A DNA stretch of 64,000 bases from an uncultured Bifidobacteriaceae bacterium (lineage in GTDB: Bacteria > Actinomycetota > Actinomycetes > S36-B12): assembly GCA_964597445.1 (NCBI GenBank), contig CAZQXO010000002.1:10304-74303 (forward strand), written 5' to 3'. The notes under the pieces are model-generated. The model did no database searches. It saw only the letters and a list, made by a program, of their open reading frames with translations, and was not told where the DNA came from. The position numbers and the translations under genes are program-made. Positions 43,150-64,000 of this stretch are shown one piece after another (within the stretch, counting starts at the first letter, position 1; the number at the start of each line of letters is the position of its first letter).

Positions 43150-43219
43150 TCGGCAGTCCTGTCCACAGGCCGCAGGACGCCGGTGTCGTGGCGATGCCAC
43201 GTCGACATACGGTCACCGT

Positions 43220-44855: not shown

Positions 44856-44949
44856 TCCTTGATCGCTCGGGGCAGCACACGGCTGCTGTCATCTACGCCA
44901 CGTTACGTCGTCACGGCCGGGTGAGGACGGTGACACGGGCTGCACGACA

Positions 44950-46368: not shown

Positions 46369-46482
46369 GATTCTCCTGCGGGCGCATCGGCGCCTGGACG
46401 TAGCGGATCGGAGAGCGGGGCCGTCGCGCCCCGTCGTCCCACCAGTCCCTTCCGCGTGAGCAGGTGCCCCCAGACTACCTCG

Positions 46483-47655: not shown

Positions 47656-47661
47656 CCGAGG

Positions 47662-48495: not shown

Positions 48496-49391
48496 CAGAC
48501 GAGGTCCTCGGTGCCGGAGCGTCGGATGTAGAAGAAGACCAGCAGGACGATGGCCGCCATGAGCACGAAGGACAGGGCACTTGCGGTCGGATAGTCGCGG
48601 AACTGGATGAAGTTGATCTGGATGGCGTTGCCGATCATGCGATTGCCTGTCGAACCCAGCAGGGCCGCATTGATGTAGTCACCGGATGCCGGGATGAACG
48701 TGAGCAGCGTGCCTGCCACCACACCTGGCATCGAGAGCGGCCAGGTCACCTTGCGGAAGGCCGTCCTGGGCGAGGCGTAGAGGTCACCGGCAGCCTCGAT
48801 CAGGCGCGGGTCGATCTTCTCGAGCGCGGCATACAGGGGCAGGATCATGAAGGGCAGGAAGTTGTAGGTGAGCCCGGCGACCACGGCTATCCCCGTGTTC
48901 AGGACCCGATCATCCGGCAGCAGGTGCATGGCATTGAGGATCCCGGTGATGAAGCCCTCGTCCGACAGGATCGTCTTCCAGGCGTAGGTGCGCAGGAGGA
49001 AGGAGGCGAACGAGGGAGCGATCACGAGCACCAGCAGGAGGGAACGCCACCTTCCGCCCCGGAAGGCGATGAAGTAGGCCAGTGGGTACGCGATCACGAG
49101 AGCCAGGACGGTGGCGATGCCCGCGTAGAGGAAGGAGCGCACGAACAGGGGCCAGTACTCGGCGAGAGCGCTGGCGTAGTTCCCGAACTCCAGGCCGAAC
49201 ATGTAGCGGCCGGACTGCCCGGGCACGGGCTGCTGAAGACTCGTGAGGAACAGCGTGACGAAAGGGATCGCGAAGAAGATGGCGAGCCACGCGATTCCCG
49301 GGAAGAGGAGCAGGTAGCCCGTTCGGGACGATCGCTGCGCACGTGCGGGAGGCGACGTGCTCGACCCCGTCGTCGGGACGACAGCGACCAT
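48495..49391 (-). CDS. Polyamine ABC transporter permease (PotB/PotH-like)
   Basis: EAA loop LIEAAGDLYASPRTAFRKVTWPL; polytopic. Confidence 0.88.
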   Translation of the reverse strand: MVAVVPTTGSSTSPPARAQRSSRTGYLLLFPGIAWLAIFFAIPFVTLFLTSLQQPVPGQSGRYMFGLEFGNYASALAEYWPLFVRSFLYAGIATVLALVIAYPLAYFIAFRGGRWRSLLLVLVIAPSFASFLLRTYAWKTILSDEGFITGILNAMHLLPDDRVLNTGIAVVAGLTYNFLPFMILPLYAALEKIDPRLIEAAGDLYASPRTAFRKVTWPLSMPGVVAGTLLTFIPASGDYINAALLGSTGNRMIGNAIQINFIQFRDYPTASALSFVLMAAIVLLVFFYIRRSGTEDLV

Positions 49392-49393
49392 CG

Positions 49394-50581
49394 TCAGGCA
49401 CCGACCTCGTCGGACAGCAGCTGTGTGCTGACCCGCTCCGCCTCGACCTCCTGAGGATCGCGACCGGCATTCACGCCCGGAGCGGAGTCGAGGCCGAAGG
49501 TGTGCTCCGGTGCCCAGTGGACTGTGACGTCATCGCCGACGTCGCACCTGTCCCCCACGATCACGTTCTGCTCGAACACGATGAGTTCCTGGCCCCACGC
49601 TGTCTCGACCAGGTACTGCGTCGAGACGCCCGTGTAGGAGACGTCCGTGACCTTGCCCTCCAGCCGGTTGTGACCATCCGGGACACGGTGGGCATCCACG
49701 CGGTCGAGGACCGTGATCTTCTCGGGCCGCACCCCGACGATCACCTCGGATCCCGTGCTGAAGCACCGGTCGTTCGGCACCGCGAACGTGACTCCATGCG
49801 CCTCGACGAGAGTCGTGCCTCCCGAGGGACCGGACCGTCGCCCGGGGATCAGGTTGGACTGGCCCAGGAAGTTGGCCACGAACACCGTGCGCGGCGTCTC
49901 GTAGATGTCCGCTGGGTGCCCCATCTGCTCGATCCGTCCCGCGTTCATGACGGCCACGGTGTCGGCCATCGTCATGGCCTCCTCCTGGTCGTGGGTGACG
50001 TGAACGAAGGTGGTCCCCACGTCCACCTGGATCCGCTTGAGCTCGATCTGCATCTGACGACGCAGCTTGAGGTCCAGCGCGCCCAAGGGCTCATCGAGGA
50101 GGAGCACGTCCGGCTGGTTGATCAGCGCCCTCGCCACCGCCACGCGCTGCTGCTGGCCACCCGACAGCTGGGCCGGCTTGCGTCGAGCGAGCGGCCCGAG
50201 TTCGACCAGATCGAGCATCGCCTCGACCTGAGGGCGGACATCCTTGATCCCGCGCCGCCTCAGACCGAAGGCGACGTTCTCGAAGATGTCGAGGTGCGGG
50301 AAGAGCGCATAGGACTGGAACACCGTGTTGACCGGGCGCTCGAAGGCCCGGAGGCGCGTCACGTCCCGATCACCGATGCGGATGGAGCCGGCCGTGGGGT
50401 CCTCCAGGCCGGCAACCATCCGCAGCGTCGTGGTCTTGCCGCACCCGGACGCACCAAGTAGGGCGAAGAAGGATCCTGCAGGAATCGTCAGCGTCAGATC
50501 GTCCACGGCGACGAAGTCCCCGAAGCTCTTGGTGAGATTCCGCAGGTGGAGATCCTCCACCTGCCGATCCTTGTTCGTCAC
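49394..50581 (-). CDS. potA: Polyamine ABC transporter ATP-binding protein (PotA/PotG-like)
   Basis: Walker [10 protein letters not shown], signature [15 protein letters not shown], Walker [12 protein letters not shown], and a C-terminal TOBE-like regulatory domain. Confidence 0.92.
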
Positions 50582-50617
50582 GAGCCCTGCCCTCCTGATC
50601 GACCGTTGCTCGGCGGC

Positions 50618-51835
50618 CTAGTTGCCGATAGCCGACTGGAACTCCCGCTCGTACTTCTCGTTCTGCTCCGGGGTGAGAGTCATGAACACGTAGCTGTTCG
50701 AGAGCGTCTCGTCGGAGGGGAAGATCCACTGGTTGTCCACGAGCGAGGGATCGACCTCCGCCATGGCCTCCTTGGCACCCTTCACCGGGGTGATGTACTG
50801 CACGTAGGCAGCAACCTGGGCCGCCACCACCGGGTCGTAGTAGTAGTTCATCGCGAGCTCAGCGTTCTTCTTGTGCTGGGCCATGGCGGGAACGAGCATG
50901 TTGTCGGTCCACAGGGTGGCACCGGTCTCGGGAAGGGCCACGCCGTAGTCCTCACCGAGCTGGATCATGTCGCCCGACCAGCCGATGACCGCGATCACGT
51001 CGCCGCTCTCGAGCGCCGCGAGGTAATCGTTGCCGGTCACCTGTCGGATCTGGCCGCTGTCGACCTGCTGGGTCAGCAGCTCGATCGCGGCGCTGAACTC
51101 GTCATCGGTGAAGCTCGTCGGATCGGCTCCCTGGTAGGCCATGAGGATGCCCATGGTGTCGCGCATCTCCGACAGCACTGTGATCCGGCCCTTCAGAGCC
51201 GGATCGAAGAGCTGGTCGAGCGAGTTCATGGTGTCGGTGCCGATGGCCGCCTGGAGTCCGGACTTGTTCCAGCCCAGGGCACCGAATCCGGACTGCCACG
51301 GAAGGGTGTACTCGCGGTTGGGATCGAACGACACGCCCTGCCAGGCGGGGAGCAGGTTCGCGGAGTTGGGAATGAGTGCCGGATCCAGCTTCTGCGCGTA
51401 GCCGTTCTGAATCCACAGCGCCGCCATCCAGTCGGTGAGCACGACGAGGTCGCGGCCGATGTCCTGGCCCTGCTCGAGCTGCGTGCGCACCTTGGCGAAG
51501 AACTCGTTGTTGTCGTTGACATCCTCGGTGTAGGTGACCGTGATGCCGGTCTGCTCCTGGAAGGCCTCCAGGGTCGGCCGCGAGCCGGTCGCCTCGTCGA
51601 CATCGAGGTAGGCCACCCACGTCGACCAGTTCAGCGTCTTGTCGGTGTCGCTCAGATCCTCGGCCGCCGCCGCCTCTCCCGCCGTGCCGGTGCCGCTGTC
51701 ACCGCCGGCACCACAGGCGGCGGCAACCATGGCCGCGCTTCCGATCCCCGCGGCCTGCAGAAGCCGCCGTCGGGAGACGGATGACCGCATCGTCCCGGCG
51801 ATGGCGGCGATGGCCTGCGAACGGTGGTTGCTCAT
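50618..51835 (-). CDS. Second polyamine-type ABC substrate-binding lipoprotein (paralog of 46483-47655)
   Basis: Tat-like SRRRLLQAAG + lipobox AAACG. Clearly alignable with the other SBP (LPWQSGFGALGWN vs LPWQSGFTGIGWN; WTDNMLVP vs WADSMLIP). I chose the ATG at 51835 to avoid overlapping the aldehyde DH gene. Confidence 0.84.
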   Translation of the reverse strand: MSNHRSQAIAAIAGTMRSSVSRRRLLQAAGIGSAAMVAAACGAGGDSGTGTAGEAAAAEDLSDTDKTLNWSTWVAYLDVDEATGSRPTLEAFQEQTGITVTYTEDVNDNNEFFAKVRTQLEQGQDIGRDLVVLTDWMAALWIQNGYAQKLDPALIPNSANLLPAWQGVSFDPNREYTLPWQSGFGALGWNKSGLQAAIGTDTMNSLDQLFDPALKGRITVLSEMRDTMGILMAYQGADPTSFTDDEFSAAIELLTQQVDSGQIRQVTGNDYLAALESGDVIAVIGWSGDMIQLGEDYGVALPETGATLWTDNMLVPAMAQHKKNAELAMNYYYDPVVAAQVAAYVQYITPVKGAKEAMAEVDPSLVDNQWIFPSDETLSNSYVFMTLTPEQNEKYEREFQSAIGN

Positions 51836-51899
51836 GAGTCCTCCTGCGGTCGGATCGGATGCTGTGGTCGGGTCGTACGGGAGAGTGCTGGAGCGAACG

Positions 51900-53387
51900 T
51901 TACGCGGTGTCGGTGAAGATCGTGCGGTGCCATGGCTTGCGCGCCACACCCGTGATGTCGAGGGAGACGTGCTTCACGTGGGTGTACTCCTCGAATGAGT
52001 AGTCGGACATGTCCTTGCCGAAGCCGGACTGGCCGTACCCGCCATGGGGCATCTCGCTCACGATCGGGATGTGGTCGTTGATCCACACGCAGCCAGCGCG
52101 GATCTCGCGCTGGGCGCGCAGCGCCCGGAACACGTCACGCGTCCAGGCCGAGGCCGCCAGTCCGTAGACCGTGTCGTTGGCCAGGGCCAGACCCTCGTCG
52201 TCCGAGCCGAAGGGCAGCGCAGCGAGGACAGGTCCGAAGACCTCGTCCCGCACGATCTCCGAGTCCTGGCCCGCCCCCGTGATGAGGGTCGGCAGGTAGT
52301 AGGCGCCCCGCGCGAGCTCTCCACCCGGTGCGGCCCCGCCCGTCACGATGCTGGCTCCCGACGCGCGGGCGCGGTCGACGAATCCCGCCACGCGATCGGC
52401 CTGACGCTGGGACACCAGAGGACCGAGGTCCGTTGCCGGATCTTCCGGGGGTCCGACCCGGATCGTGCGGTACAGATCTGCGACGCCGTCCACGAAGGCC
52501 TGGTAGAGCGGCCTCTGGACATAGGCCCGCGTCGCGGCCGTGCAGTCCTGTCCGGAGTTGATCAGGCTGGCCGCGACGGCGCCATGGACGGCCGCCTCGA
52601 GATCGGCATCGTCGAAGACGACGAAGGGTGCCTTGCCGCCCAGTTCCAGATGGACCCGCTTGATCCCCCCCGTGGCGAGCTCCATGACCCGCTGACCCAC
52701 GGGCGTCGACCCTGTGAAGGACACCATGTCGACGTCAGGATGCGAGACCAGGTGCTCCCCGACGGTCGGACCCGGGCCCACCACCACGTTGACGACGCCC
52801 GGCGGGATGCCGACCGCCGCGCAGTCCTCGGCCAGGAGCAGCGTGGTGAGCGGCGTGATCTCCGCAGGCTTGAGCACGATGGTGTTCCCGGCCGCGATGG
52901 CGGGCAGCATCTTCCACATGGCCATCTGGAGGGGGTAGTTCCACGGCGCGATGGAGCCCACGACCCCGATGGCCTCGCGCCGGATGAGTGACGTGTGCAC
53001 CCCGTCCCACTCGGCCGAGGCCTTGCCCTCCAGCCGCCGAGCAGCGCCGGCGAAGAAGGCGACGTTGTCGATCGACCCCGGGACGTCGAACTCCGTCGTG
53101 AGCCGGATGGGCTTGCCCGTCTGCCGGGTCTCCGTCTCGGCGTACTCGGCCGCGCGCGTGCCGAGCCGGTCGGCGAGTCGCAGCAGGGCCGACGATCGTT
53201 CGACGGGGGCTGCGGAGGACCACTCCGGGAAGGCGCTCCGAGCAGCGGAGACCGCAGCATCCACGTCCGACGGGTCAGCCCAGGTGAAGGAGTCCAGTAC
53301 CTCCGCGGTGGCGGGATCGACCACGTGACCGACGGCGTCCGAGGATCCCGCCCGAGGGGCCCCCGCGACGAACACGGCCTTCGTCAT
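51900..53387 (-). CDS. NAD(P)-dependent aldehyde dehydrogenase (aminobutyraldehyde-DH-like)
   Basis: ALDH motifs ...IAPWNYPL..., ELGGKAP, and a catalytic Cys region NSGQDCTAATR. It is the first gene of the polyamine operon. Confidence 0.9.
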   Translation of the reverse strand: MTKAVFVAGAPRAGSSDAVGHVVDPATAEVLDSFTWADPSDVDAAVSAARSAFPEWSSAAPVERSSALLRLADRLGTRAAEYAETETRQTGKPIRLTTEFDVPGSIDNVAFFAGAARRLEGKASAEWDGVHTSLIRREAIGVVGSIAPWNYPLQMAMWKMLPAIAAGNTIVLKPAEITPLTTLLLAEDCAAVGIPPGVVNVVVGPGPTVGEHLVSHPDVDMVSFTGSTPVGQRVMELATGGIKRVHLELGGKAPFVVFDDADLEAAVHGAVAASLINSGQDCTAATRAYVQRPLYQAFVDGVADLYRTIRVGPPEDPATDLGPLVSQRQADRVAGFVDRARASGASIVTGGAAPGGELARGAYYLPTLITGAGQDSEIVRDEVFGPVLAALPFGSDDEGLALANDTVYGLAASAWTRDVFRALRAQREIRAGCVWINDHIPIVSEMPHGGYGQSGFGKDMSDYSFEEYTHVKHVSLDITGVARKPWHRTIFTDTA

Positions 53388-53581: not shown

Positions 53582-54976
53582 TCAGACTCCCCTCAGCGTG
53601 GGACCGGTGGCCGCCGCGGTCGCGAGCGCGTCGATGACATGCGACAGGAGGGTGGTGTCGTGCTCATCGAGGATCCCGGTCGTGACGCGGACGTGCCCGG
53701 ACCCCGCCTCGGGTCGCACCATGAAGGGAGAGCCGGGTGACACCCGAACCCCGAGCGCGGCCAGCGTGATCAGCGCCGAGCGCTCGTCCGCCACGCGGAC
53801 CCAAGCATTGATCCCATCGCCCGTCGTGCTCTCCACGCCCCTCCCGGCCAGGCCCGCCCGGAGTGCCAGTCCGCGCATGGCATAGGCGCTCCGGGCCCGC
53901 CCGACAGCGGCGATGGCAGCCGGATCCGTCAGCAGCTCGAGCAGGACCGCCTGCAGGAGACGGCTGGTCCAGCCCGGTCCCAGCATGCGCCGCGCGACGA
54001 GTGGATCCAGCACCTCCGCGGCTCCTGCGACAGCGGCGATGCGGAGGTCCGGCCCATGGGACTTCGAGTAGCTGCGGATGTGCACGGTGCGATCCGGCAG
54101 GTACCGGCCCATGCTGACGTCCTCGCCAGTGGCGATCGTGCCCGAGTGATCGTCCTCGATCACCCAGGCCGAGGACCCGGCCATGGCCTCGGCCAGGTCC
54201 GATGCTCGGATCAGGCTCATGCTGATCCCGGTGGGGTTCTGGGCTCGCGGCTGGAGGAACACCGCCACGGGTTCCGCGAGAAGCGCCTCGCGGAGGCTGC
54301 TGACGACCACGCCCTCGGCATCCATCTCGAGGGGCAGGATCTCTGCGCCGGCGCGCTCGAGCAGGTCGATGAGAGGCGGGAACCCCGGATTCTCCATGGC
54401 GACGCGATCCCCGAGGCGCACGAGCTGGTCGACGACGCGGGAGAGGGCATCGAGCGCGCCGTCGACCACGGTCAGGCGCTGGGGCGGGAACGGCCAGTCG
54501 GCTCGCAGCACCTCCTCGAGGGCGGGCAGGACGGGATCGTCGAGATAGCTCGTGGTCCAGTCGGCCGAGCCGGCGAGCACGCGTTCGACCGCCTCGCGCA
54601 GAGGAGGGAGCAGGGAGGGATCCGGAGTGCCGGACGACAGGTTGATCCCCTCGGACATCGGGGCGCCGCCGATCCCCAGGTAGCGGATCGGCCGGGTCGG
54701 CTCCGCTGACTCCAGGACGAAGGTTCCCGCTCGACCGCGCGCCTGGATGGCCCCCACCGCGGCCAGCGCCTGCCAGGCCTCGCTGACCGTCGCCGGACTC
54801 ACCGCGAGTTCGCGCGCGAGGACCCGGACGGTGGGCAGCCGGTCACCCGTGGTCAGGTGACCGGCACGGATCAGTCGATGGACGCCGGCAGCGATGCCCC
54901 GAGGGGAGCGGTCGCTGACGGCGGCCGCCACCACATCGAGCAGGGCACTGTCGTCCGACACCGCATCCAGGCTCAT
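53582..54976 (-). CDS. MocR/GabR-type regulator (GntR wHTH fused to a fold-type I aminotransferase-like domain)
   Basis: The N-terminal GDRLPTVRVLARELAVSPATVSEAWQAL is a GntR HTH. The remaining ~350 aa are AAT-like (...YSKSHGPDLRIAAV... PLP-Lys region). I chose the ATG at 54976 (MSLDAV). Confidence 0.85.
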   Translation of the reverse strand: MSLDAVSDDSALLDVVAAAVSDRSPRGIAAGVHRLIRAGHLTTGDRLPTVRVLARELAVSPATVSEAWQALAAVGAIQARGRAGTFVLESAEPTRPIRYLGIGGAPMSEGINLSSGTPDPSLLPPLREAVERVLAGSADWTTSYLDDPVLPALEEVLRADWPFPPQRLTVVDGALDALSRVVDQLVRLGDRVAMENPGFPPLIDLLERAGAEILPLEMDAEGVVVSSLREALLAEPVAVFLQPRAQNPTGISMSLIRASDLAEAMAGSSAWVIEDDHSGTIATGEDVSMGRYLPDRTVHIRSYSKSHGPDLRIAAVAGAAEVLDPLVARRMLGPGWTSRLLQAVLLELLTDPAAIAAVGRARSAYAMRGLALRAGLAGRGVESTTGDGINAWVRVADERSALITLAALGVRVSPGSPFMVRPEAGSGHVRVTTGILDEHDTTLLSHVIDALATAAATGPTLRGV

Positions 54977-55008
54977 CGCACCTCCCCCGCACGCTCGGGC
55001 ACCTGACC

Positions 55009-55042
55009 GTCTCTTTGTTGAAAAGCCGTTGTAACAGAGATC
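55009..55042. promoter_or_regulatory. Locally AT-rich imperfect palindrome in the MocR / pyrimidine-cluster divergent intergenic region (candidate operator/promoter)
   Basis: gtctctttgttgaaaagccgttgtaacagagatc: the arms tctct...agaga and ttgtt/aaca are roughly symmetric. It stands out against ~70% GC surroundings and lies between divergent starts at 54976 and 55117. Confidence 0.2.
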
Positions 55043-55116
55043 CGATTGTCTAGAGTCCGGAATCACACATCCCGCACCGGTTTCGATGATCGCATCATCG
55101 CCACGAGGAGGAATCC

Positions 55117-55953
55117 ATGACCGTCATCCGTGCAGCCCTCGTCCAGACGGACTGGACCGGCGACAAGGAGTCCATGATCGTCAAGCACGAGGACTACGCA
55201 CGGGAGGCCGCCGCGCAGGGGGCTCAGGTCATCTGCTTCCAGGAGCTCTTCTACGGCCCCTACTTCTGCCAGGTGCAGGACAAGCAGTTCTACGAGTACG
55301 CCGAGGCGATCCCCGGCCCGATCACGGAGCGGTTCCAGGCACTGGCCAAGGAACTCGGCATGGTCATGGTGCTGCCCATGTACGAGGAGGAGCAGCCCGG
55401 CGTCCTCTACAACACGGCTGCCGTCATCGATGCGGACGGCAGCTACCTCGGCAAGTACCGCAAGCAGCACATCCCGCACGTCGCCGGATTCTGGGAGAAG
55501 TTCTACTTCCGTCCCGGCAACGGCGGCTACCCGGTCTTCGACACGGCCGTGGGCAAGATCGGCGTGTACATCTGCTACGACCGGCACTTCCCCGAGGGCT
55601 GGCGTGCCCTGGGCCTGAACGGGGCCCAAATCGTCTTCAATCCCTCGGCCACGTCACGCGGCCTGTCCCAGTACCTCTGGAGCATCGAGCAGCCTGCCGC
55701 AGCCGTGGCCAACGAGTACTTCGTGGGTGCCATCAACCGCGTCGGTGTCGAGCCCCTCGGCGACGATGACTTCTACGGCCAGTCCTACTTCGTCGATCCC
55801 GAGGGCAGCTACGTCGGCGACAAGGGCGATCCGTACGCCTCCGAGCTCATCGTCCGGGACCTGAACATGGACCTCCTGACTGAGGTGCGCAACCGCTGGC
55901 AGTTCTACCGGGACCGCCGCCCGGACGCCTACGACGATCTCGTCCGCCCCTAG
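55117..55953 (+). CDS. Carbon-nitrogen hydrolase, beta-ureidopropionase (N-carbamoyl-beta-alanine amidohydrolase) type
   Basis: Nitrilase-superfamily Glu-Lys-Cys triad contexts VICFQELF, YRKQHIP and VYICYDRHFPE, plus EKFYFRPGN. Directly upstream of dihydropyrimidinase. GAGGAGG SD before the ATG. Confidence 0.85.
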   Translation: MTVIRAALVQTDWTGDKESMIVKHEDYAREAAAQGAQVICFQELFYGPYFCQVQDKQFYEYAEAIPGPITERFQALAKELGMVMVLPMYEEEQPGVLYNTAAVIDADGSYLGKYRKQHIPHVAGFWEKFYFRPGNGGYPVFDTAVGKIGVYICYDRHFPEGWRALGLNGAQIVFNPSATSRGLSQYLWSIEQPAAAVANEYFVGAINRVGVEPLGDDDFYGQSYFVDPEGSYVGDKGDPYASELIVRDLNMDLLTEVRNRWQFYRDRRPDAYDDLVRP

Positions 55954-55991
55954 GCAGCACGAACCCCGCACGCCACTCGAAGGGATCAGTC

Positions 55992-57410
55992 ATGACCATC
56001 CTCATCACCAACGGCACCGTGATCTCGGCTCAGGGCAGCACCCGTGCCGACGTGCTGGTCGACGGCGAGACCATCGCTGCCGTCCTCGCTCCGGGGGACA
56101 CGTCGCTCGGAGCCGATCTCGCCCGCAGCGCGGATCGCGTGATCGACGCAACCGGCAAGTACGTCGTGCCCGGCGGCGTCGACGGGCACACGCACATGGA
56201 GATGCCCTTCGGTGGCACGGTCGCCTCCGACACCTTCGAGACCGGAACCCGGGCCGCCGCCTGGGGTGGCACGACCACGATCATCGACTTCGCCGTCCAG
56301 AAGCAGGGCGAGCGCGTGCAGGACTGCCTCGCAGAGTGGCACCGGAAGGCCGCCGGGAACTGCGCCATCGACTACGGCTTCCACCAGGTCATCGGCGGCG
56401 TCGACAGCGATTCCCTCAAGGCGATGGACGAGCTCGTCGACGAGGGGGTGACGACCTTCAAGCTCTTCATGGCCTACCCGGGGGTGTTCCTGAGCTCGGA
56501 CGGCCAGATCCTGCAGGCCATGCAGCAGGCGGCGAGCAACGGCTCGATGATCATGATGCACGCCGAGAACGGCAGCGCCATCGACGTCCTCGTGGCTCAG
56601 GCCCTCGCCGAGGGCAAGACCGATCCCAAGTACCACTCGCTCACCCGACCCTGGGAGACGGAGGCGGAGGCGGTCAACCGTGCCGTGATGCTCGCCCGCA
56701 TGACCGGGGCGCCCCTCTACATCGTCCACATGTCGGCCAAGCAGGCAGTGGAGGTCCTGCAGAAGCACCGCGACGAGGGCTGGAACGTCTTCGGCGAGAC
56801 CTGCCCGCAGTACCTGTACCTCTCGGTGGAGGAGCACCTCGCGCAGGCGGGATTCGAGGGCGCCAAGTGGGTCTGCTCGACACCCCTGCGCGAGCGGGCC
56901 GAGCACCATCAGGACGAGCTGTGGCGCTACCTGCGCACGAACGACCTGTCCGTCATCAGCACCGACCACTGCCCCTTCTGCTTCAAGGAGCAGAAGGAGA
57001 TGGGGCTCGGCGACTTCTCGAGGATCCCGAACGGCATCGGCGGAGTCGAGCATCGGATGGACCTCATCTACCAGGGCGTCGTCGAGGGGAAGATCTCCCG
57101 CGAGCGCTGGGTCGAGCTCTGCTCCACCACGCCGGCACGCATGTTCGGTCTCTACGGCCGCAAGGGCGACATTCGACCCGGGTTCGATGCCGACATCGTC
57201 ATCTACGACCCGGCAGGACGCACCGAGATCGGCGTCGGGAAGACCCACCACATGAACATGGATCACTCCGCCTACGAGGGGTTCGTCATCGACGGCCATG
57301 TGGACACCGTGCTGTCGCGCGGCAAGGTGGTCGTCGACGACAACCAGTACCTCGGGACCAAGGGCGACGGCCAGTTCCTCAAGCGCGGACTGTCCCAGTA
57401 CCTGCTCTGA
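55992..57410 (+). CDS. hydA: Dihydropyrimidinase / D-hydantoinase
   Basis: Cyclic amidohydrolase pattern: VVPGGVDGHTHMEMPF (HxH), TTFKLFMAY (carboxylated Lys), MIMMHAENG, YIVHMS, ISTDHCPF. Confidence 0.92.
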   Translation: MTILITNGTVISAQGSTRADVLVDGETIAAVLAPGDTSLGADLARSADRVIDATGKYVVPGGVDGHTHMEMPFGGTVASDTFETGTRAAAWGGTTTIIDFAVQKQGERVQDCLAEWHRKAAGNCAIDYGFHQVIGGVDSDSLKAMDELVDEGVTTFKLFMAYPGVFLSSDGQILQAMQQAASNGSMIMMHAENGSAIDVLVAQALAEGKTDPKYHSLTRPWETEAEAVNRAVMLARMTGAPLYIVHMSAKQAVEVLQKHRDEGWNVFGETCPQYLYLSVEEHLAQAGFEGAKWVCSTPLRERAEHHQDELWRYLRTNDLSVISTDHCPFCFKEQKEMGLGDFSRIPNGIGGVEHRMDLIYQGVVEGKISRERWVELCSTTPARMFGLYGRKGDIRPGFDADIVIYDPAGRTEIGVGKTHHMNMDHSAYEGFVIDGHVDTVLSRGKVVVDDNQYLGTKGDGQFLKRGLSQYLL

Positions 57411-57478
57411 CCCTCGCTCTCTCGCTCTCGACAGAGACCCAGGCCCCGCCCCAGCACCACGACGAATCAGGAGCACCC

Positions 57479-59092
57479 GTGCGCACCATCGACCACTGGA
57501 TCAAGGGATCGACCGTCCCCTCGACATCGGGGCGCAGCGGCCCCGTCTACGACCCCGCGACCGGCCAGCAGCAGGCCGTGGTGGGCCTCGCCAGTGCCGA
57601 GGAGGTCGACGACGCCGTCGCCGCCGCGGCCACCGCCTTCCGCACCTGGCGGTCCGCATCGCTCTCGAAGCGCGCCGAGGTGATGTTCCGGTTCCATGAG
57701 CTCGTCGTCCAGCATCGCGACGAGATCGCCGCGCTGCTCTCGTCCGAGCACGGCAAGGTGCCCAGTGACGCGGCAGGCGAGCTCGCCCGGGGTATCGAGA
57801 ACATCGAGTTCGCCTGCGGCATCCCCCAGCTCATGAAGGGAGGCTTCAGCGAGCAGGCCTCGACTGGCGTGGACGTGTACTCCATCCGGCAGCCCCTGGG
57901 CGTGGTCGCCGGCATCACGCCGTTCAACTTCCCCGCCATGGTCCCCATGTGGATGTTCGCGAACGCCATCGCCTGCGGAAACACGTTCGTGCTCAAGCCG
58001 AGCGAGAAGGACCCGTCCGTGGCGATCCTCCTCGCGGATCTGCTCAAGCAGGCGGGACTGCCCGACGGGGTCTTCAACGTCGTCCAGGGCGACAAGGTCG
58101 CTGTCGATCGCATCCTCGAGCATCCGGACATCGCCGCCGTCAGCTTCGTCGGATCAACGCCGATCGCGAAGTACATCTACTCGACGGGCACGGCGAACGG
58201 CAAGCGCGTCCAGGCGCTCGGCGGCGCCAAGAACCACATGGTCGTGCTTCCGGATGCCGACATCGACATGGCTGCCGATGCAGCTGTCAGTGCCGGGTAC
58301 GGCTCCGCCGGTGAGCGGTGCATGGCGATCTCGGTCGTCGTGGCCGTGGGCGGGGTCGGGGGGAGGCACCGGGGGGGGGTCGCCCCCCGCCACCCCCCCC
58401 CGCAGGTGGGGGCCCGCCCCCCAGACACCGGGGGGGTGGGGGGGTTCTTGGTCTTGTGGGTGGGGGGGGGGGGGGGGGGGGGGGCCCTCCGCGGGGCGGC
58501 GCCCCCCGCCGCCCGACTCCCCCAGCTCAAGGTGGGTCCCGGCACCGATCCGACGGCGGAGATGGGTCCTCTCATCACGCGCGAGCACCGAGACAAGGTC
58601 GCCTCGTACATCGCCGGCGCACCGGATGAGGGAGCCCGGGTCGTCGTCGACGGCCGCGACAACAACCTGCCTGCCGACGGCTTCTTCCTCGCTCCGTCAC
58701 TGCTCGACGACGTCAAGCCCGGCATGGCCGCCTACGACGACGAGATCTTCGGGCCCGTGCTCTCCGTGATCCGGGTCAACACCTACGAGGAGGCGGTCGA
58801 CCTGATCAACCGCCACCAGTACGGCAACGGCACGGCCATCTTCACGCGCGACGGCGGAGCCGCCCGGCAGTTCCAGTTCGACATCCAGGTCGGCATGGTC
58901 GGGATCAACGTGCCGATCCCTGTTCCGGTTGCCTACTACAGCTTCGGAGGCTGGAAGGCATCGATCTTCGGTGACTCGAACATCTACGGACCCGCCGGCA
59001 TCGACTTCTACACGCGGACAAAGACGGTCACGTCACGCTGGCCGGATCCGTCGACCTCCTCGGTCGACCTCGGCTTCCCCCGGACTCGCTGA
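57479..59092 (+). CDS. mmsA: CoA-acylating methylmalonate/malonate-semialdehyde dehydrogenase, interrupted in-frame by an anomalous G/C-homopolymer segment
   Basis: VRTIDHWIKG..., ITPFNFPAMVPMWMF, FVLKPSEKDP, ALGGAKNH, catalytic SAGERCMAIS, and C-terminal INVPIPVPVAYYSFGGWKASIFGD...VTSRWP are all MmsA hallmarks. GTG start at 57479 with AGGAG upstream. The product is ~537 aa, versus the ~500 aa I expect for the family. Confidence 0.85.
   Translation: MRTIDHWIKGSTVPSTSGRSGPVYDPATGQQQAVVGLASAEEVDDAVAAAATAFRTWRSASLSKRAEVMFRFHELVVQHRDEIAALLSSEHGKVPSDAAGELARGIENIEFACGIPQLMKGGFSEQASTGVDVYSIRQPLGVVAGITPFNFPAMVPMWMFANAIACGNTFVLKPSEKDPSVAILLADLLKQAGLPDGVFNVVQGDKVAVDRILEHPDIAAVSFVGSTPIAKYIYSTGTANGKRVQALGGAKNHMVVLPDADIDMAADAAVSAGYGSAGERCMAISVVVAVGGVGGRHRGGVAPRHPPPQVGARPPDTGGVGGFLVLWVGGGGGGGALRGAAPPAARLPQLKVGPGTDPTAEMGPLITREHRDKVASYIAGAPDEGARVVVDGRDNNLPADGFFLAPSLLDDVKPGMAAYDDEIFGPVLSVIRVNTYEEAVDLINRHQYGNGTAIFTRDGGAARQFQFDIQVGMVGINVPIPVPVAYYSFGGWKASIFGDSNIYGPAGIDFYTRTKTVTSRWPDPSTSSVDLGFPRTR
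58355..58512 (+). other. Anomalous ~160-nt low-complexity G/C-homopolymer block inside mmsA (G9, C6, C9, G7, G7, G23 runs)
   Basis: Read directly: G9 at 58371-58379, C9 at 58393-58401, G7+G7 at 58430-58444, G23 at 58462-58484. Only ~20 A/T by hand count. It encodes ...GGRHRGGVAPRHPPPQVGARPPDTGGVGGFLVLWVGGGGGGGALRGAAPPAA..., which replaces the short conserved linker before LKVGPGTDP. Confidence 0.9.
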
Positions 59093-59121
59093 CCCCTCAC
59101 CCCTCCACCGGAAGGCAGCAC

Positions 59122-60153
59122 ATGGATATCGGCGTCGTTCTGCAGTGCACACCACCGGCGGCCCGGGTGGTCGACCTCGCCAAGCGGTCGGAGACCTACG
59201 GCTTCTCCTATGTGTGGACATTCGACTCCCACATCCTGTGGGAGGAGCCGTACGTGATCTACAGCAAGATCCTCGATGAGACGCGCAAGGTCATCGTCGG
59301 ACCGATGGTGACCAACCCGGCGACCCGGGACATCACCGTGACGGCCTCCGTGTTCGCCACGCTCAACGAGATGTACGGCAACCGGACGGTCATCGGCATC
59401 GGCCGAGGTGACTCTGCTGTCCGCGTCACCAACGGCAAGCCCGTCAGCGTCGCGGAGCTGCGCGAGGCCGTCGTCGACATCAAGGGCCTGGTCAACGGCG
59501 AGGCGATCGAGTACAAGGGCAACCACCTGCGCCTGCCCTGGGCGGGGGCCTCGCGCACCGACGTCTGGGTGGCGGCCTACGGGCCGAAGGTGCTCGCCCT
59601 CACCGGCGAGGTGGGCGACGGGTTCATCCTCCAGCTGGCGGATCCCTCCATCGCCGCGTGGACCATCCAGGCGGTGCGTGATGCCGCCTCGGCCGCCGGC
59701 CGGGACCCGGACGAGGTCTACATCTGCGTCGCAGCCCCCGCCTACGTCACCGACGGCTCCCCCGAGGCCCTCGCCCATGCCCGTGACCAGCTGAGGTGGT
59801 TCGGCGGCATGGTCGGCAACCACGTCGCCGACATCGTCGCGCGCTACGGCGAGAACGGCGGGGCCGTGCCCCAAGCGCTGACCGACTACATCAAGAACCG
59901 CCAGGGGTACGACTACAACGAGCACGGGCAGGCCGGGAACAGCCACACCGACTTCGTGCCCGACGACATCGTCGACCGGTTCTGCATCATCGGACCCCCG
60001 GAGGAGCACATCAGGCGCCTCGAGGAGCTGAAGGCCCTGGGCGTCGACCAGTTCGCGGTGTACCTCCAGCACGACGACAAGGACCACACCCTCGCCGCAT
60101 ACGGGGAGAAGATCATCCCGGCCGTGCAGGAGCACCTGAAGGCCAAGGAGTGA
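59122..60153 (+). CDS. Luciferase-like monooxygenase (LLM) class oxidoreductase, F420/flavin-dependent, Mer-related
   Basis: MDIGVVLQCTPPAARVVDLAKRSETYGFSYVWTFDSHILWEEPYV...GPMVTNPATRD...IGIGRGDSAVR is the TIM-barrel LLM pattern closest to methylene-H4MPT-reductase-like F420 enzymes; 343 aa. Confidence 0.82.
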   Translation: MDIGVVLQCTPPAARVVDLAKRSETYGFSYVWTFDSHILWEEPYVIYSKILDETRKVIVGPMVTNPATRDITVTASVFATLNEMYGNRTVIGIGRGDSAVRVTNGKPVSVAELREAVVDIKGLVNGEAIEYKGNHLRLPWAGASRTDVWVAAYGPKVLALTGEVGDGFILQLADPSIAAWTIQAVRDAASAAGRDPDEVYICVAAPAYVTDGSPEALAHARDQLRWFGGMVGNHVADIVARYGENGGAVPQALTDYIKNRQGYDYNEHGQAGNSHTDFVPDDIVDRFCIIGPPEEHIRRLEELKALGVDQFAVYLQHDDKDHTLAAYGEKIIPAVQEHLKAKE

Positions 60154-60186
60154 CCGCGTGGGTCACGACTTGATATCGGTTGACGT

Positions 60187-61161
60187 ATGCGCAGCAGGCA
60201 CGACATGACGCTGGGGGATCCTTCGCACGTGTCGAACCCCGCCGGACCGGTCGTCACGTCCGAGGAATCCGCGGCGGCTCGGCCCCGTCCCACCGGCACG
60301 ATCCGTCGACGCCTGCGACGAGGTGCCATCGGACTGCTGTGGGCCTTGGCCGGAGTGGTGCTCGTGGTGCTCATGTGGGAGCTCGTCAAGCTGCTCGGGA
60401 CCGCCATCGAGCTCCCCTTCCGCACGAACGACACGGCCATGCCCCATGTCTGGACGATGGTGCAGGGCTTCGGCCAGCCGGAGGTGCGGGGGTCGGACAC
60501 GACTGTCCTGCAGGCGGTTGCCCTCGCCACGCTGTACTCGCTCCTGATCGCATTCGGGGGGTTCCTGATCGGGGTCTCGATCGGCCTCCTCCTCGCGATC
60601 GTCATGCAGCGTTTCGCCTTCATGGAGCGCGGTCTCCTGCCGTTCGTGATCGCGTCCCAGACCGTCCCGCTCATCGCACTGGCCCCGCTCATCGTCGGGA
60701 TCGGCAATCGCATCAGCATCGGGCCCTTCCAGTGGGGCACGACCCAGTCGGTCATGTTCATCGCGGCCTACCTGGCCTTCTTCCCGATGAGCGTGGGCGC
60801 ACTACGCGGACTCAAGGCCCCCTCTGCGACGGCACTCGAACTCATGCGGTCCTACGCCGCAACGCCGCGCCAGATGCTCTGGAAGCTCCGCTTCCCCTCC
60901 TCCGTGCCGTACCTCGTCCCGGCCTTGAAGGTCTCCGCGGCAGCGTCCGTCGTCGGCACGGTCGTGGCGGAGATCTCCACCGGCGTGCGCGGCGGCATCG
61001 GGCGCCTCATCGTCGAGTACGCCCGAGAGGCCACGGCACAGCCCGCCAAGGTCTATGTCGCCGTGTTCGGCGCCATCCTCCTCGGCCTCATCGCCGCGGG
61101 AATCGTCGCGCTGTTCGACACCTACATCACCCGCAATCTCCCCAAGGAAGGGTCGGCATGA
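60187..61161 (+). CDS. ABC transporter permease (NitT/TauT family)
   Basis: Polytopic BPD_transp_1 protein with an EAA-like loop (ALELMRSYAATPRQMLWKLRFPSSVPYL). ATGA overlap with the ATPase gene. Confidence 0.85.
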   Translation: MRSRHDMTLGDPSHVSNPAGPVVTSEESAAARPRPTGTIRRRLRRGAIGLLWALAGVVLVVLMWELVKLLGTAIELPFRTNDTAMPHVWTMVQGFGQPEVRGSDTTVLQAVALATLYSLLIAFGGFLIGVSIGLLLAIVMQRFAFMERGLLPFVIASQTVPLIALAPLIVGIGNRISIGPFQWGTTQSVMFIAAYLAFFPMSVGALRGLKAPSATALELMRSYAATPRQMLWKLRFPSSVPYLVPALKVSAAASVVGTVVAEISTGVRGGIGRLIVEYAREATAQPAKVYVAVFGAILLGLIAAGIVALFDTYITRNLPKEGSA

Positions 61162-61994
61162 GCATGACCTCGCCCACCGGACACCCGGCCGTCAGCGCCA
61201 CGGGGGTCTGGAAGATCTTCAACGAGGGTCAGCCCAATGAGGTCACCGCCCTGCAGGACGTCACGATCGACGTCGCCGAGGGCGAGTTCGTCTCGCTCAT
61301 CGGCCCATCTGGCTGTGGCAAGAGCACCCTGCTCCGGGTCATCGCCGACCTCACCCATGCGACGCGTGGCGACATGCAGGTGGCGGGACTCTCGGCCGCT
61401 GATGCGCGCCAGCAGCAGAAGTACGGCATGGCCTTCCAGCAGGCCGCGCTCTTCGACTGGCGCACGGTGCGCCGCAACGTCGAACTCCCGCTGGAGCTCC
61501 AGGGCTGGGACAAGTCCCGTCGATCGGCGAGGGCACTGGAACTGCTCGAGATGGTGCAGCTCGCGGACTTCGCCGACCACCGCCCCTGGGAGCTCTCCGG
61601 CGGCATGCAGCAGCGGGTCGCCATCGCACGGTCCCTGGCCGTCGATCCCCCGCTCCTGCTCATGGACGAGCCCTTCGGTGCCCTGGACGAGATGACCCGG
61701 GAGCGCATGCAGAACGAGCTCCTGAGGATCCGTCGGGAGACCGGCAAGAGCATCATCTTCGTGACCCACTCGATTCCCGAGGCGGTCTACCTCTCCGACC
61801 GGGTCGTGGTGATGTCTCCCCGTCCCGGTCGCATCACGGACATCGTCCCGATCACTCTCGGCGATCGGAACGAGGACACCCGCGAGGCCGAGGCGTTCTA
61901 CGCCGGCGTGACGGCCGTGCGGGAGGCTCTCCGGGGCCATCCCCACAGGGGTTCGTCCGGCAGCGACGTTCGGGCTCGGGTGGGCGAGGTCTGA
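61158..61994 (+). CDS. ABC transporter ATP-binding protein (NitT/TauT family)
   Basis: Walker A GPSGCGKST, signature LSGGMQQRVAIARSL, Walker B LLLMDEPFGALD. Only the C-terminal 278 codons of track ORF 60180-61994 are used; the start is the ATG at 61158. Confidence 0.92.
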   Translation: MSMTSPTGHPAVSATGVWKIFNEGQPNEVTALQDVTIDVAEGEFVSLIGPSGCGKSTLLRVIADLTHATRGDMQVAGLSAADARQQQKYGMAFQQAALFDWRTVRRNVELPLELQGWDKSRRSARALELLEMVQLADFADHRPWELSGGMQQRVAIARSLAVDPPLLLMDEPFGALDEMTRERMQNELLRIRRETGKSIIFVTHSIPEAVYLSDRVVVMSPRPGRITDIVPITLGDRNEDTREAEAFYAGVTAVREALRGHPHRGSSGSDVRARVGEV

Positions 61995-61996
61995 AC

Positions 61997-62767
61997 GTGA
62001 CCCGGCGCATCAACCTCATCTGGCCACCCATCCTTGTGGGTGTCCTGTTCCTGGGTGCCTGGCAGCTGCTCGTGGTGAGTCGCGACATCCAGCCGTACCT
62101 GCTGCCTGCGCCCAGCCTCATCGGGGAGAACTTCTTCGGGAACATGGACCTGATGTGGTCCACGGCCATCTACACCGCGGTCACGGCGCTGCTCGGCCTC
62201 GTCTTCGGCACGGCTGCAGGACTCCTGGCTGCCTTCCTCGCCCAGAGATTCATCGTGGTCAACAACATGGTCACCCCCCTGGCCGCCGGACTCGCCGCCG
62301 TGCCCATCGTCGCCCTCACGCCGATCCTCAACAACATGTTCGACATCACCAGTCGAACGCCCAGGGTGCTGGTGACCGCGATCATCGTCTTCTTCCCCGT
62401 GTTCGTGAACGTCACGCGGGGCCTGGTCCAGGTGCAGCCGGTGCAGCTCGAACTCATGCGCTCGATGAGCGCCCAGCCTCGGACGGTCCTTCGGCTGCTG
62501 CGCATCCCGAACGCCATCCCCTTCTTCTTCACGGCCATGAAGATCACCGCACCCATGGCCGTGATCGCCGCCCTCGTTGCCGAGTACTTCGGAGGGCCGC
62601 AACTCGGACTTGGCAGCCGGATCGCGTCATCGGCTGCCAACACTGCCTACGGCCGAGCGTGGGCATACGTCGTCGCAGCGATCATCACGGGACTGCTGTT
62701 CTACCTGGTAGTCCTGCTGGCCGAGCGCTGGGCGGCACCGTGGACGGGTCGATCACGTTCGGCCTGA
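61997..62767 (+). CDS. ABC transporter permease (NitT/TauT family), second subunit
   Basis: Polytopic, with an EAA-like loop LELMRSMSAQPRTVLRLLRIPNAIPFF. It starts 3 nt after the ATPase stop. Confidence 0.85.
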   Translation: MTRRINLIWPPILVGVLFLGAWQLLVVSRDIQPYLLPAPSLIGENFFGNMDLMWSTAIYTAVTALLGLVFGTAAGLLAAFLAQRFIVVNNMVTPLAAGLAAVPIVALTPILNNMFDITSRTPRVLVTAIIVFFPVFVNVTRGLVQVQPVQLELMRSMSAQPRTVLRLLRIPNAIPFFFTAMKITAPMAVIAALVAEYFGGPQLGLGSRIASSAANTAYGRAWAYVVAAIITGLLFYLVVLLAERWAAPWTGRSRSA

Positions 62768-62785
62768 CAACCTAGAGGAGGAAGT

Positions 62786-64000
62786 ATGCGCAAGACCGCA
62801 CGCAGTCGATGGGTCGCCGCCACCGGCGTCGTCATCGCCGGGGCACTTGCCCTCACCGCCTGCAGCAGCGACTCAGGCTCCACGGAGGAGCCCGCCGCTT
62901 CTGCGCCGGCTGAGGAGGCCCCTGCCGAGGAGGCTCCCGCAACGGACGCCGCCGCCAGTGGTGAGTGCACCGAGCTCACACCCGTGAGCCTGCAGCTCCA
63001 GTGGTTCGCCCAGGCCCAGTTCGCCGGCTACTACGCAGCCAAGGACAAGGGCTACTACGAGGCCCAGTGCCTCGATGTCACGATCCTCGAGGGTGGCGTG
63101 GACATCGTCCCGCAGACGGCTCTCGCTCAGGGCAACACCGACTTCGCGATCGCCTGGGTTCCCAAGGCCCTCGCATCGCGGGAGCAGGGCGCCGGCATCG
63201 TGAACGTGGCGCAGGTGTTCCAGCGCTCCGGCACGCTGCAGGTCGCGTGGGCAGACTCCGGCATCACCACGCCGGCGGACTTCAAGGGCAAGAAGATCGG
63301 AAACTGGGGCTTCGGCAACGAGTTCGAGGTCTTCGCAGCCATCACCGAGGCCGGTCTCGACCCGGCCACGGATGTCGAGCTCGTGCAGCAGCAGTTCGAC
63401 ATGCAGGGCCTGCTCAACCGCGAGATCGATGCGGCTGAGGCCATGACCTACAACGAGTACGCCCAGCTGCTCGAGACGAAGAACCCCGAGACAGGTGAGC
63501 TCTACAAGCCTGAGGACTTCAACGTCATCTCCTACGAGGAGGTCGGCGTGGGCATGCTTCAGGACTCCATCTGGGCATCGGAGGAGCGCCTGGCGGATAC
63601 GGCGTATCAGGACATCACGCAGCGCTTCGTGACCGCGTCCCTCCAGGGCTGGATCCACTGCCGCGACAACGCCGAGGAGTGCGCGACCCTGGTCACGGCG
63701 GCGGGCTCCAAGCTCGGTGCCAGCCACCAGCTGTGGATGATGAACGAGGTCAACAAGCTCATCTGGCCCTCCCCGGCCGGCGTGGGCGTGATGAACCCGG
63801 ATGCCTGGGCTCAGACCGTGGCGATCTCGCTCAACACCAAGAACCTCGAGGGCTCGACGGTCATCACGGCCGAGCCGGCTGAGGGCTCTTGGACCAACCA
63901 GTACGCCGTGGCCGCGAACGAGCAGCTCACGGCCGAGGGCCTGAACACCACAGGGGATGCCTTCGCCCCGATCAGCGTCACCCTCAACGAGGGCGGCAAC
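62786..64000 (+). CDS. ABC transporter substrate-binding lipoprotein, NMT1/THI5-like (ThiY/pyrimidine-binding type); 3' end beyond the window
   Basis: Absent from the ORF track because there is no stop inside the window. I translated 405 codons by hand without a stop: MRKTARSRWVAATGVVIAGALALTACSSDSG... (lipobox LTAC), an Ala/Glu/Pro linker, then VSLQLQWFAQAQFAGYYAAKDKGYYEAQCLDVTILEGG..., typical of NMT1/THI5-like SBPs. GAGGAGGAAG SD at 62775-62784. Confidence 0.8.
   Translation, partial: MRKTARSRWVAATGVVIAGALALTACSSDSGSTEEPAASAPAEEAPAEEAPATDAAASGECTELTPVSLQLQWFAQAQFAGYYAAKDKGYYEAQCLDVTILEGGVDIVPQTALAQGNTDFAIAWVPKALASREQGAGIVNVAQVFQRSGTLQVAWADSGITTPADFKGKKIGNWGFGNEFEVFAAITEAGLDPATDVELVQQQFDMQGLLNREIDAAEAMTYNEYAQLLETKNPETGELYKPEDFNVISYEEVGVGMLQDSIWASEERLADTAYQDITQRFVTASLQGWIHCRDNAEECATLVTAAGSKLGASHQLWMMNEVNKLIWPSPAGVGVMNPDAWAQTVAISLNTKNLEGSTVITAEPAEGSWTNQYAVAANEQLTAEGLNTTGDAFAPISVTLNEGGN

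Follow-up and report, generated by a model that had tools for sequence, protein, structure and literature searches.

We analysed a 64,000-nt window from the genome of an aquatic actinobacterium (uncultured Bifidobacteriaceae bacterium, assembly GCA_964597445.1, contig CAZQXO010000002.1), the last part of which carries a string of genes for the reductive breakdown of pyrimidines (Pyd pathway). Within this string lies a gene (59122–60153) encoding a protein of the luciferase-like monooxygenase class, referred to below as the LLM. Judging from its family and its gene context, this protein is probably an F420H2-dependent uracil/thymine reductase which replaces the canonical dihydropyrimidine dehydrogenase (PydA or PreT-PreA), and the best explanation of the region as a whole is a complete operon for the import and catabolism of uracil and thymine. 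The LLM had been put forward as the candidate for the missing redox step in an initial annotation made from the DNA letters; the protein family, the synteny and the absence of PreT/PreA from the neighbourhoods of LLM genes all support that choice.

The Pyd operon and its divergent regulator

Genes were called from the open reading frame (ORF) map of the window and from Pfam and NCBIfam scans of its proteins, and the nine genes of the initial annotation were all recovered at the same positions. The plus-strand string begins with a carbon-nitrogen (CN) hydrolase of the beta-ureidopropionase type, i.e. an N-carbamoyl-beta-alanine / beta-aminoisobutyrate amidohydrolase (55117–55953; PF00795, 231 bits). 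It is followed by the dihydropyrimidinase PydB (55992–57410; TIGR02033, 556 bits for a cut-off of 393), by MmsA, a CoA-acylating malonate/methylmalonate-semialdehyde dehydrogenase (57479–59092; TIGR01722, 687 bits in two stretches for a cut-off of 448), and by the LLM-class F420-dependent oxidoreductase itself (TIGR03842, 572 bits for a cut-off of 295). An ATP-binding cassette (ABC) system of four genes comes next: permease 1, of NitT/TauT type (60187–61161; PF00528), an ATPase (61158–61994; PF00005), whose best NCBIfam match is a taurine-type ATPase model under its cut-off, permease 2 (61997–62767; PF00528) and an NMT1/THI5-like substrate-binding lipoprotein (PF09084, 126 bits) which starts at 62786 and runs off the window beyond 64000. 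The successive intergenic gaps are 38, 68, 29, 33, -4, 2 and 18 nt, the start of the ATPase gene overlapping the stop of permease 1, and no terminator-like site was seen on the plus strand inside the string. Thus one transcription unit is the natural reading.

On the minus strand the string is faced by a MocR-type regulator (53582–55066) which combines a GntR helix-turn-helix domain (PF00392) with an Aminotran_1_2 domain (PF00155); the MocR-like NCBIfam models stay under their cut-offs. The divergent regulator had been annotated initially and its presence stands, while its start is revised: the true start is probably the ATG at 54976, judging from the sequence. This leaves a divergent intergenic region of 140 nt (54977–55116), with an AGGAGG ribosome binding site ahead of the ATG of the CN hydrolase. 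The region contains the sole AT-richer stretch nearby, with repeated TTGT motifs; it gave no match to the sigma-70 consensus. It is presumably the promoter/operator region, the AT-richer TTGT stretch being a candidate operator for MocR.

No curated model names beta-ureidopropionase, and the best NCBIfam model for the CN hydrolase is AguB, under its cut-off. Its nearest structures are an N-carbamoylputrescine amidohydrolase (5h8i, E 7e-54) and the beta-ureidopropionases of Drosophila (2vhh, E 8e-54) and human (6ftq, E 6e-50); the D-carbamoylases are far more distant. For the binding protein the nearest solved structures are 4nmy and the formylaminopyrimidine-binding ThiY (3ix1), and we propose that this lipoprotein is the pyrimidine-binding component of the importer.

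PreT-PreA is missing from the neighbourhoods of the LLM

Three forms of dihydropyrimidine dehydrogenase (DPD) are known: PydA/DPD, which uses NADPH, PreT-PreA, which uses NADH, and a ferredoxin-dependent clostridial form. With PreT and PreA of Escherichia coli K-12 (b2146/b2147) as tblastn queries and a threshold of E <= 1e-3, no match was obtained in the 64-kb window, to which the absence in the host refers; the initial annotation had likewise seen no PreT/PreA or dihydroorotate dehydrogenase (DHODH)-like reductase. The same search gave no match in 163 neighbourhoods of LLM genes, about 2.6 Mb in all (80 actinobacterial, 1.06 Mb; 80 proteobacterial, 1.52 Mb; 3 plasmid-borne). These queries do find PreT/PreA in the pyrimidine clusters of Bacillota and Betaproteobacteria, with E values from 1e-57 to 1e-106, thus the search is sensitive enough. 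An anti-correlation between the LLM and preTA had been suggested beforehand as a check; at the level of the neighbourhood, PreT/PreA is absent around the 163 LLM genes and present in the canonical clusters. Among plasmid records, at least 11 have preA within 8 kb of hydA, and none of those listed bears an LLM gene.

Comparison with canonical clusters indicates which slot the LLM takes. In Cytobacillus spongiae the order is CN hydrolase-PreT-PreA-hydA-NCS1-PucR-MmsA-aminotransferase, and in Burkholderia multivorans a TetR gene is divergent from M20-PreT-PreA-NCS1-hydA. The clusters with an LLM are these canonical gene sets minus PreT-PreA. The window's CN hydrolase is 65% identical to that of the canonical preT-preA-hydA cluster of Cytobacillus and its MmsA 42% identical to the MmsA there; its PydB shares 45% identity with the Cytobacillus enzyme, against 39% with that of the LLM cluster of Leisingera. 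The Leisingera hydA product is in turn closest to that of Burkholderia (56%), and M20 hydrolase and NCS1 permease are each 57% identical between these two genera. The LLM has thus joined two versions of the pathway, one with a CN hydrolase and one with an M20 hydrolase, as would be expected if a shared step had undergone non-orthologous displacement.

The LLM and PydA/PreT-PreA (DPD and the clostridial form included) would share the reaction, i.e. reduction of the C5=C6 bond of uracil or thymine, and they share the place in the cluster, among orthologous PydB, PydC, MmsA, aminotransferase and permease genes. PreT-PreA consists of a DHODH-like barrel with flavin mononucleotide (FMN) and a subunit with iron-sulfur clusters and flavin adenine dinucleotide (FAD), whereas the LLM is a luciferase-family TIM barrel without kinship to it in sequence or fold. 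In PydA electrons pass along an NAD(P)H-FAD-[4Fe-4S]-FMN relay; the LLM would take a hydride directly from F420H2, as a single subunit without iron-sulfur clusters. It may work like PydA, but it stands outside the PydA family.

Linkage to the ring-processing hydrolases in Actinomycetota

For the actinobacterial census one genome per species was scanned; among at least 595 TIGR03842 matches the best 80 were taken (72–92% identity to the window's LLM). They come from uncultured Actinomycetes, Nanopelagicales, Ilumatobacteraceae and other Acidimicrobiia, and Solirubrobacteraceae, the nearest (91–92%) being metagenome-assembled genomes (MAGs) of Actinomycetes from soil, sludge and freshwater. The window proteins were mapped onto these 80 loci, and each gene was counted over the loci with enough flank to be testable.

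A dihydropyrimidinase gene lies upstream of the LLM gene in all 49 testable loci, and a CN hydrolase beside it in 48 of 49. MmsA is found in 46 of 49, the four-gene ABC system downstream in 33 of 46, and a MocR homologue in the same divergent position in 23 of 44. The LLM is thus bound more tightly to the two ring-processing hydrolases than to the transporter, the regulator or MmsA, and co-occurrence with hydantoinase and beta-ureidopropionase, which the initial annotation had singled out for a census, is close to complete. The LLM stays with PydB and PydC in three loci where MmsA is missing (L067, L074 and L080), and in Streptomyces rimosus and Streptomyces sp. BHT-5-2 PydB is followed directly by the LLM.

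Linkage to cofactor and pyrimidine genes in Proteobacteria

A search of plasmid proteins revealed TIGR03842 genes in Leisingera and Paracoccus alcaliphilus (43–45% identity). According to the RefSeq annotation, in both the LLM is the last gene of a cofG-cofH-cofD-cofC-cofE-npdG(Fno)-LLM operon. In Leisingera the genes pntAB-aminotransferase-M20 hydrolase-hydA-NCS1 permease run divergently from this operon. With the Leisingera protein as query and one genome per species, at least 393 proteobacterial matches were obtained and 80 species were collected, including Rhodobacterales, Pseudovibrio, Cohaesibacter, Roseibium and Marinomonas. The LLM orthologue, 44% identical, has cof genes beside it in 77 of the 80 species and Fno in 70. 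It mostly closes the series cofG-cofH-cofD-cofC-cofE-fno, while a minority of species, e.g. Roseibium, have it in divergent orientation to cof.

Linkage to pyrimidine genes was counted within 10-kb flanks, 11 loci ending at a contig edge right at cofG. Across the 80 species, an M20 hydrolase is within reach of the LLM in 33, hydA in 17 and an NCS1 permease in 17; in 7 further loci the pntAB/aminotransferase edge is all that is visible of the Leisingera arrangement. The cof-fno-LLM unit has NCS1, hydA and M20 beside it in Leisingera, Paracoccus denitrificans, Pseudovibrio and Thalassovita; in P. denitrificans Pd1222 the order is NCS1-hydA-M20 | cofGHDCE-fno-LLM-TetR. In Marinomonas MED121, where hydA had been predicted past the 10-kb flank, it was found: the order is TetR | M20-NCS1-amidohydrolase (479 aa), divergent from TetR-cofGHDCE-Fno-LLM. 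The co-occurrence with pyrimidine genes thus recurs in Alpha- and Gammaproteobacteria with non-homologous partner genes.

In Cohaesibacter, an Ensifer MAG and P. alcaliphilus an ABC system replaces NCS1 beside the cof-LLM unit. The binding proteins of Cohaesibacter and the Ensifer MAG are 34–41% identical to that of the window; for P. alcaliphilus only the ATPase and one permease matched the window's system. The importer had been annotated as the carrier of the substrate, which fits an NMT1-type system found again with the LLM in different phyla and exchanged elsewhere for an NCS1 nucleobase permease, uracil and thymine being the predicted cargo.

Two other arrangements were recorded in these hosts. 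In Roseibium algae (L125, 10001–16572) the LLM is divergent from cof, and after it come a CUT2-type ABC system, made up of a Peripla_BP_4 binding protein, a double ATPase and two BPD_transp_2 permeases, and a GntR/FCD regulator. The 10-kb flanks contain no pyd gene; the arrangement may represent another uptake system for the same substrate, or another use of the enzyme. The P. denitrificans plasmid NZ_CP096595.1 (L173, 134785–137710) carries a second hydA paralogue with an Asp/Glu (hydantoin-type) racemase and a GntR gene, without PreTA or LLM: it is a different hydantoinase system beside the cof-fno-LLM Pyd cluster of the same host.

The LLM belongs to the F420-dependent class

When compared with the hidden Markov models of LLM subfamilies, as the initial annotation had suggested, the 59122–60153 product proves to be a full-length member of TIGR03842 (572.1 bits for a cut-off of 295.45, E 3e-172, model positions 1–329 of 329). 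TIGR03842, also called the CPS_4043 family, is a hypothetical-equivalog family without assigned function, of the F420 class and related to Mer. The initial label of an "F420/flavin" LLM resembling Mer is retained for the LLM and Mer-like part, and its cofactor class is narrowed to F420. A sequence search of the PDB returned ten matches, all ten F420-dependent LLMs (Mer best with E 2e-32; FGD2, FGD1 and Adf). An AlphaFold2 model for which 35 family members were used (pLDDT 85.6, pTM 0.88) gave the same picture with Foldseek: the top 20 are F420-dependent LLMs (Mer, FGD1, FGD2 and Adf), and FMN enzymes (monooxygenases) appear from rank 21.

Among solved structures Mer (8qpl, 8qpm, 1z69 and 1f07; EC 1.5.98.2) comes closest to the LLM, with E 2e-32 in phmmer and E 5e-22 in Foldseek, a TM-score of about 0.75 and 24–27% identity. 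In jMer a non-prolyl cis-peptide at Gly61-Val62 forms the backstop beneath F420 (PMC11094777). In the HMMER alignment the loop G60-P-M-V-T-N-P66 of the window's LLM corresponds to G59-P-G-V-T-N-P65 of jMer, i.e. both have G-P-x-V-T-N-P; V63, T64, N65 and P66 are invariant across the TIGR03842 family, the cis conformation being a feature not visible from sequence. Asp96 of jMer is likewise kept, as D97. The difference lies at the catalytic position: Glu6, the key catalytic residue of jMer, forms an iminium cation and its E6Q variant retains 0.4% of kcat (PMC11094777), whereas position 6 is Val in the window's LLM and in the family consensus. The NCBIfam models of Mer give 127–135 bits, under their cut-offs of 276 and 349. 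With the F420 scaffold of Mer and without its catalytic Glu, the LLM is therefore not a methylene-tetrahydromethanopterin reductase. The contexts differ too: C1 metabolism for Mer, pyrimidine catabolism for the LLM.

Actinobacterial and proteobacterial members are 40–48% identical, yet 85 positions are at least 98% identical over 148 sequences of both clades. These include D35, S36, H37, W40, the backstop loop, R95, G96, D97 and S98, as well as a family-specific segment, W226-N273, with N233, H234, D237, Y256, R260, Y263, D264, Y265, H268 and N273. This invariant polar/aromatic segment stands where Mer has another region. By homology it would correspond to the insertion after beta-7 which covers the active site in the superfamily.

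Proposed pathway and mechanism

F420H2 donates hydrides obligately, and its potential is close to that of NAD(P)H. At the FMN site of DPD, C6 of the alpha,beta-unsaturated amide receives a hydride, after which C5 is protonated. We infer a comparable substrate and direction of reaction for the LLM. The base would be imported by the ABC system with its ThiY-like binding protein; the LLM would then transfer a hydride from F420H2 to C6 of the C5=C6 bond and an active-site acid would protonate C5, giving 5,6-dihydrouracil or dihydrothymine, a step otherwise made by the FAD/FMN/[4Fe-4S] enzyme PydA/PreT-PreA. Dihydropyrimidinase would open the ring and the CN hydrolase would free beta-alanine or beta-aminoisobutyrate together with NH3 and CO2. 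An omega-aminotransferase, whose gene lies about 3 kb past the binding-protein gene in close relatives, would produce the semialdehyde, which MmsA would convert to acetyl- or propionyl-CoA. MocR would probably sense a beta-amino-acid product. As for the electrons, F420H2 would come from Fgd or Fno in Actinomycetota; in Proteobacteria the path would lead from NADH through PntAB to NADPH, then through Fno to F420H2, the LLM and finally uracil or thymine.

Two systems offer parallels. In mureidomycin and napsamycin biosynthesis, genetic and nuclear magnetic resonance evidence shows that SSGG-03002 / NpsU, a putative F420/FMN oxidoreductase, is needed for reduction of C5=C6 of the uracil ring (PMC10714638), a chemical precedent for a deazaflavin-type reduction. 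It differs in acting on a uridyl-peptide antibiotic intermediate of secondary metabolism; no in-vitro activity was obtained, and the paper does not state the protein family. The second parallel is found in uric-acid clusters of Chloroflexota, where an F420 LLM (PF00296), a putative "yanthine reductase", is present where YgfK or the DHODH-like UacX otherwise reduces a pyrimidine-type ring ahead of its opening by an amidohydrolase (PMC12507026). This one belongs to a purine/uric acid pathway and is a prediction.

Weighing of the alternatives

Several points weigh against the LLM as a uracil/thymine reductase. Guilt by association cannot alone fix the step carried out by the LLM or its exact substrate. 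The search for PreT/PreA in the host covers the 64-kb window, and neither this window nor the 80 actinobacterial flanks contain cof genes. In about half of the proteobacterial loci (11 of them cut by a contig end) no pyd gene was found within 10 kb of the cof-LLM unit; in Roseibium, Shimia and a Pararhizobium MAG, with no pyd gene within 10 kb either, the neighbours are uninformative or a CUT2-type ABC system. Finally, the confidence of the structural model is low at the lid (residues 230–280) and at the H37-W40 loop, so that we make no structural statement on substrate fit.

A first alternative is that the cluster degrades a related cyclic ureide (a substituted pyrimidine, orotate/dihydroorotate or a hydantoin-type compound) which the LLM would ready, by a redox step, for the hydantoinase and the carbamoylase. 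Dihydropyrimidinase/hydantoinase enzymes are promiscuous, NCS1 permeases also carry hydantoins and allantoin, and the CN hydrolase matches N-carbamoylputrescine amidase equally well; in addition, hydA paralogues occur in other contexts (the P. denitrificans plasmid with the Asp/Glu racemase, Comamonadaceae, Azospirillum). Against this, the partner genes of the LLM are 56–65% identical and orthologous to those of PreT-PreA clusters, which have a bona fide pyrimidine reductase, the TIGR02033 match is far over its cut-off, and MmsA and the omega-aminotransferase suit beta-alanine and beta-aminoisobutyrate, the breakdown products of uracil and thymine. We consider a different ureide unlikely.

The limit of the PreT/PreA search in the host also leaves room for a canonical PydA/PreTA elsewhere in the genome, the LLM having another role such as F420-dependent reduction of malonate semialdehyde to 3-hydroxypropionate or an Adf/FGD-like alcohol/aldehyde redox reaction. 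Characterised F420-dependent LLMs do include alcohol and sugar dehydrogenases, and the Rut pathway needs a malonate-semialdehyde reductase. In the same operon, however, MmsA already uses up the semialdehyde, and the LLM stays with PydB and PydC where MmsA is missing, in the three actinobacterial loci mentioned above as in Marinomonas. PreT/PreA, absent from the 163 neighbourhoods, is found inside canonical clusters, and a seven-gene cofactor operon would be unparsimonious for a reaction within reach of common NAD(P)H enzymes. A second role of this kind thus seems quite improbable.

The operon contains no aminotransferase gene up to the end of the window, so that it lacks both PreTA and aminotransferase where the Cytobacillus cluster has both. 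A replacement of the aminotransferase by the LLM, through F420-dependent oxidative deamination of beta-alanine or beta-aminoisobutyrate to the semialdehyde, is nevertheless very hard to believe: close relatives have a gene for a class-III omega-aminotransferase (PRK06541, 810 bits) about 3 kb past the transporter, at least 28 actinobacterial loci have such a gene within 10 kb, GabT is encoded in the window (41740–43149), and the clusters of Leisingera, Limimaricola and one Pseudovibrio hold an aminotransferase together with the LLM (those of Leisingera and Limimaricola also pntAB). We know of no F420-dependent LLM that deaminates amines. Genes past 64000 were read from the close relatives L002, L004 and L026 as proxies, and the aminotransferase of the pathway is probably just beyond 64000 in the host too.

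Implications of the proposed F420-dependent pyrimidine reductase

In the literature searched, outside which lie subscription-only papers, we found no description of an F420-dependent dihydropyrimidine dehydrogenase or pyrimidine reductase, in line with the initial view that no LLM or F420-dependent enzyme of this kind has been characterised. The Epidermidibacterium paper and the papers on GlnR and MtrA of Mycobacterium smegmatis mention dihydropyrimidinases and not the LLM. According to a 2021 review of F420, none of the F420-dependent enzymes of non-actinobacterial bacteria, Proteobacteria included, had been studied, P. denitrificans makes only traces of F420, and the reason why Proteobacteria make F420 is an open question (PMC8498797).

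If the LLM is a uracil/thymine reductase, a broader reading becomes possible, which we put forward tentatively and hold with less than even confidence. TIGR03842 would be an iron-sulfur-free class of F420H2-dependent dihydropyrimidine dehydrogenases that displaced PreT-PreA/PydA at least twice, in clusters of the CN-hydrolase type and of the M20 type. The cofGHDCE-fno-LLM unit of many Alpha- and Gammaproteobacteria from sea and soil would accordingly form a self-contained cassette, which supplies the cofactor, its recharger and the enzyme and is retained mainly or only for pyrimidine catabolism. This would answer why these Proteobacteria make F420, and would explain the trace amounts in uninduced P. 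denitrificans; an inducible cof-fno-LLM unit with ties to pyrimidine genes would make the question directly testable in a laboratory strain. A function would also be given to a large conserved orphan family, TIGR03842. The first step of pyrimidine breakdown would have a third, unrelated cofactor solution, and F420 a role in core nucleotide catabolism. A single-subunit uracil reductase, presumably free of iron-sulfur clusters, would be of interest for F420 biocatalysis, and nitrogen scavenging in abundant freshwater and marine bacteria could be better annotated.

The mmsA insert and other features of the window

The mmsA gene contains, at about 58363–58505, an in-frame stretch of 126 nt of G/C homopolymers, including a poly-G of 23 nt, which adds 42 Gly/Pro/Arg-rich residues. 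It is missing in every relative examined, whose MmsA has 495 aa. In two sequencing runs holding 88–94% of the operon's words, perfect contigs end at 58362/58363 and restart at 58505/58507, with poly-G junk contigs between. As the source runs give no support for it, the insert probably arose in assembly, as an artefact of two-colour Illumina chemistry, and the real mmsA gene is probably intact. Among metatranscriptomes, a single run held 5% of the words of the LLM gene.

The genes which follow the operon in close relatives may be described briefly. In L002 (15146–20652) the binding-protein gene is followed by a minus-strand aldehyde dehydrogenase resembling succinate-semialdehyde dehydrogenase, an AsnC regulator, the PRK06541 aminotransferase, a PF12900 (Pyridox_ox_2) protein and a DAO-family FAD oxidase; the PF12900 protein has no NCBIfam match and could be another flavin or deazaflavin enzyme. 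In L026 (13500–21000), the closest relative (LLM 92%, on a 1.04-Mb contig), the aldehyde dehydrogenase, aminotransferase and PF12900-DAO frames are split, which looks like frameshift errors of a long-read MAG and not like real pseudogenes.

Upstream of the operon, positions 40126–53387 form an apparent block for polyamine and gamma-aminobutyrate utilisation. It comprises a PucR regulator (40126–41679, minus strand), divergent from GabT (41740–43149; PRK06058, 734 bits), a saccharopine-dehydrogenase-like protein (43629–44855), an FAD amine-oxidase-like protein of the DAO family (44950–46368), a PotABCD-like ABC system with two binding proteins (46483–51949) and an aminobutyraldehyde dehydrogenase (51900–53387; PRK13473, 699 bits). 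In the closest relatives, synteny with the Pyd operon extends to the ABC system and the aminobutyraldehyde dehydrogenase, and GabT could also act on beta-alanine.

An rRNA operon had been suspected at 13.2–18.6 kb, where no ORF with high G+C at third codon positions was seen; it was rejected, Rfam giving no rRNA there and the G+C content being normal. Further along, an Actino-pnp RNA leader (RF01688, 60.9 bits) lies on the minus strand at 23415–23480 and overlaps the start of the polynucleotide phosphorylase ORF (21160–23466), whose real start is probably further downstream. Around this leader stands a conserved actinobacterial housekeeping block with NusA, an ORF of the size of initiation factor IF-2, prolyl-tRNA synthetase, IspG, an RseP-like M50 protease and Dxr.

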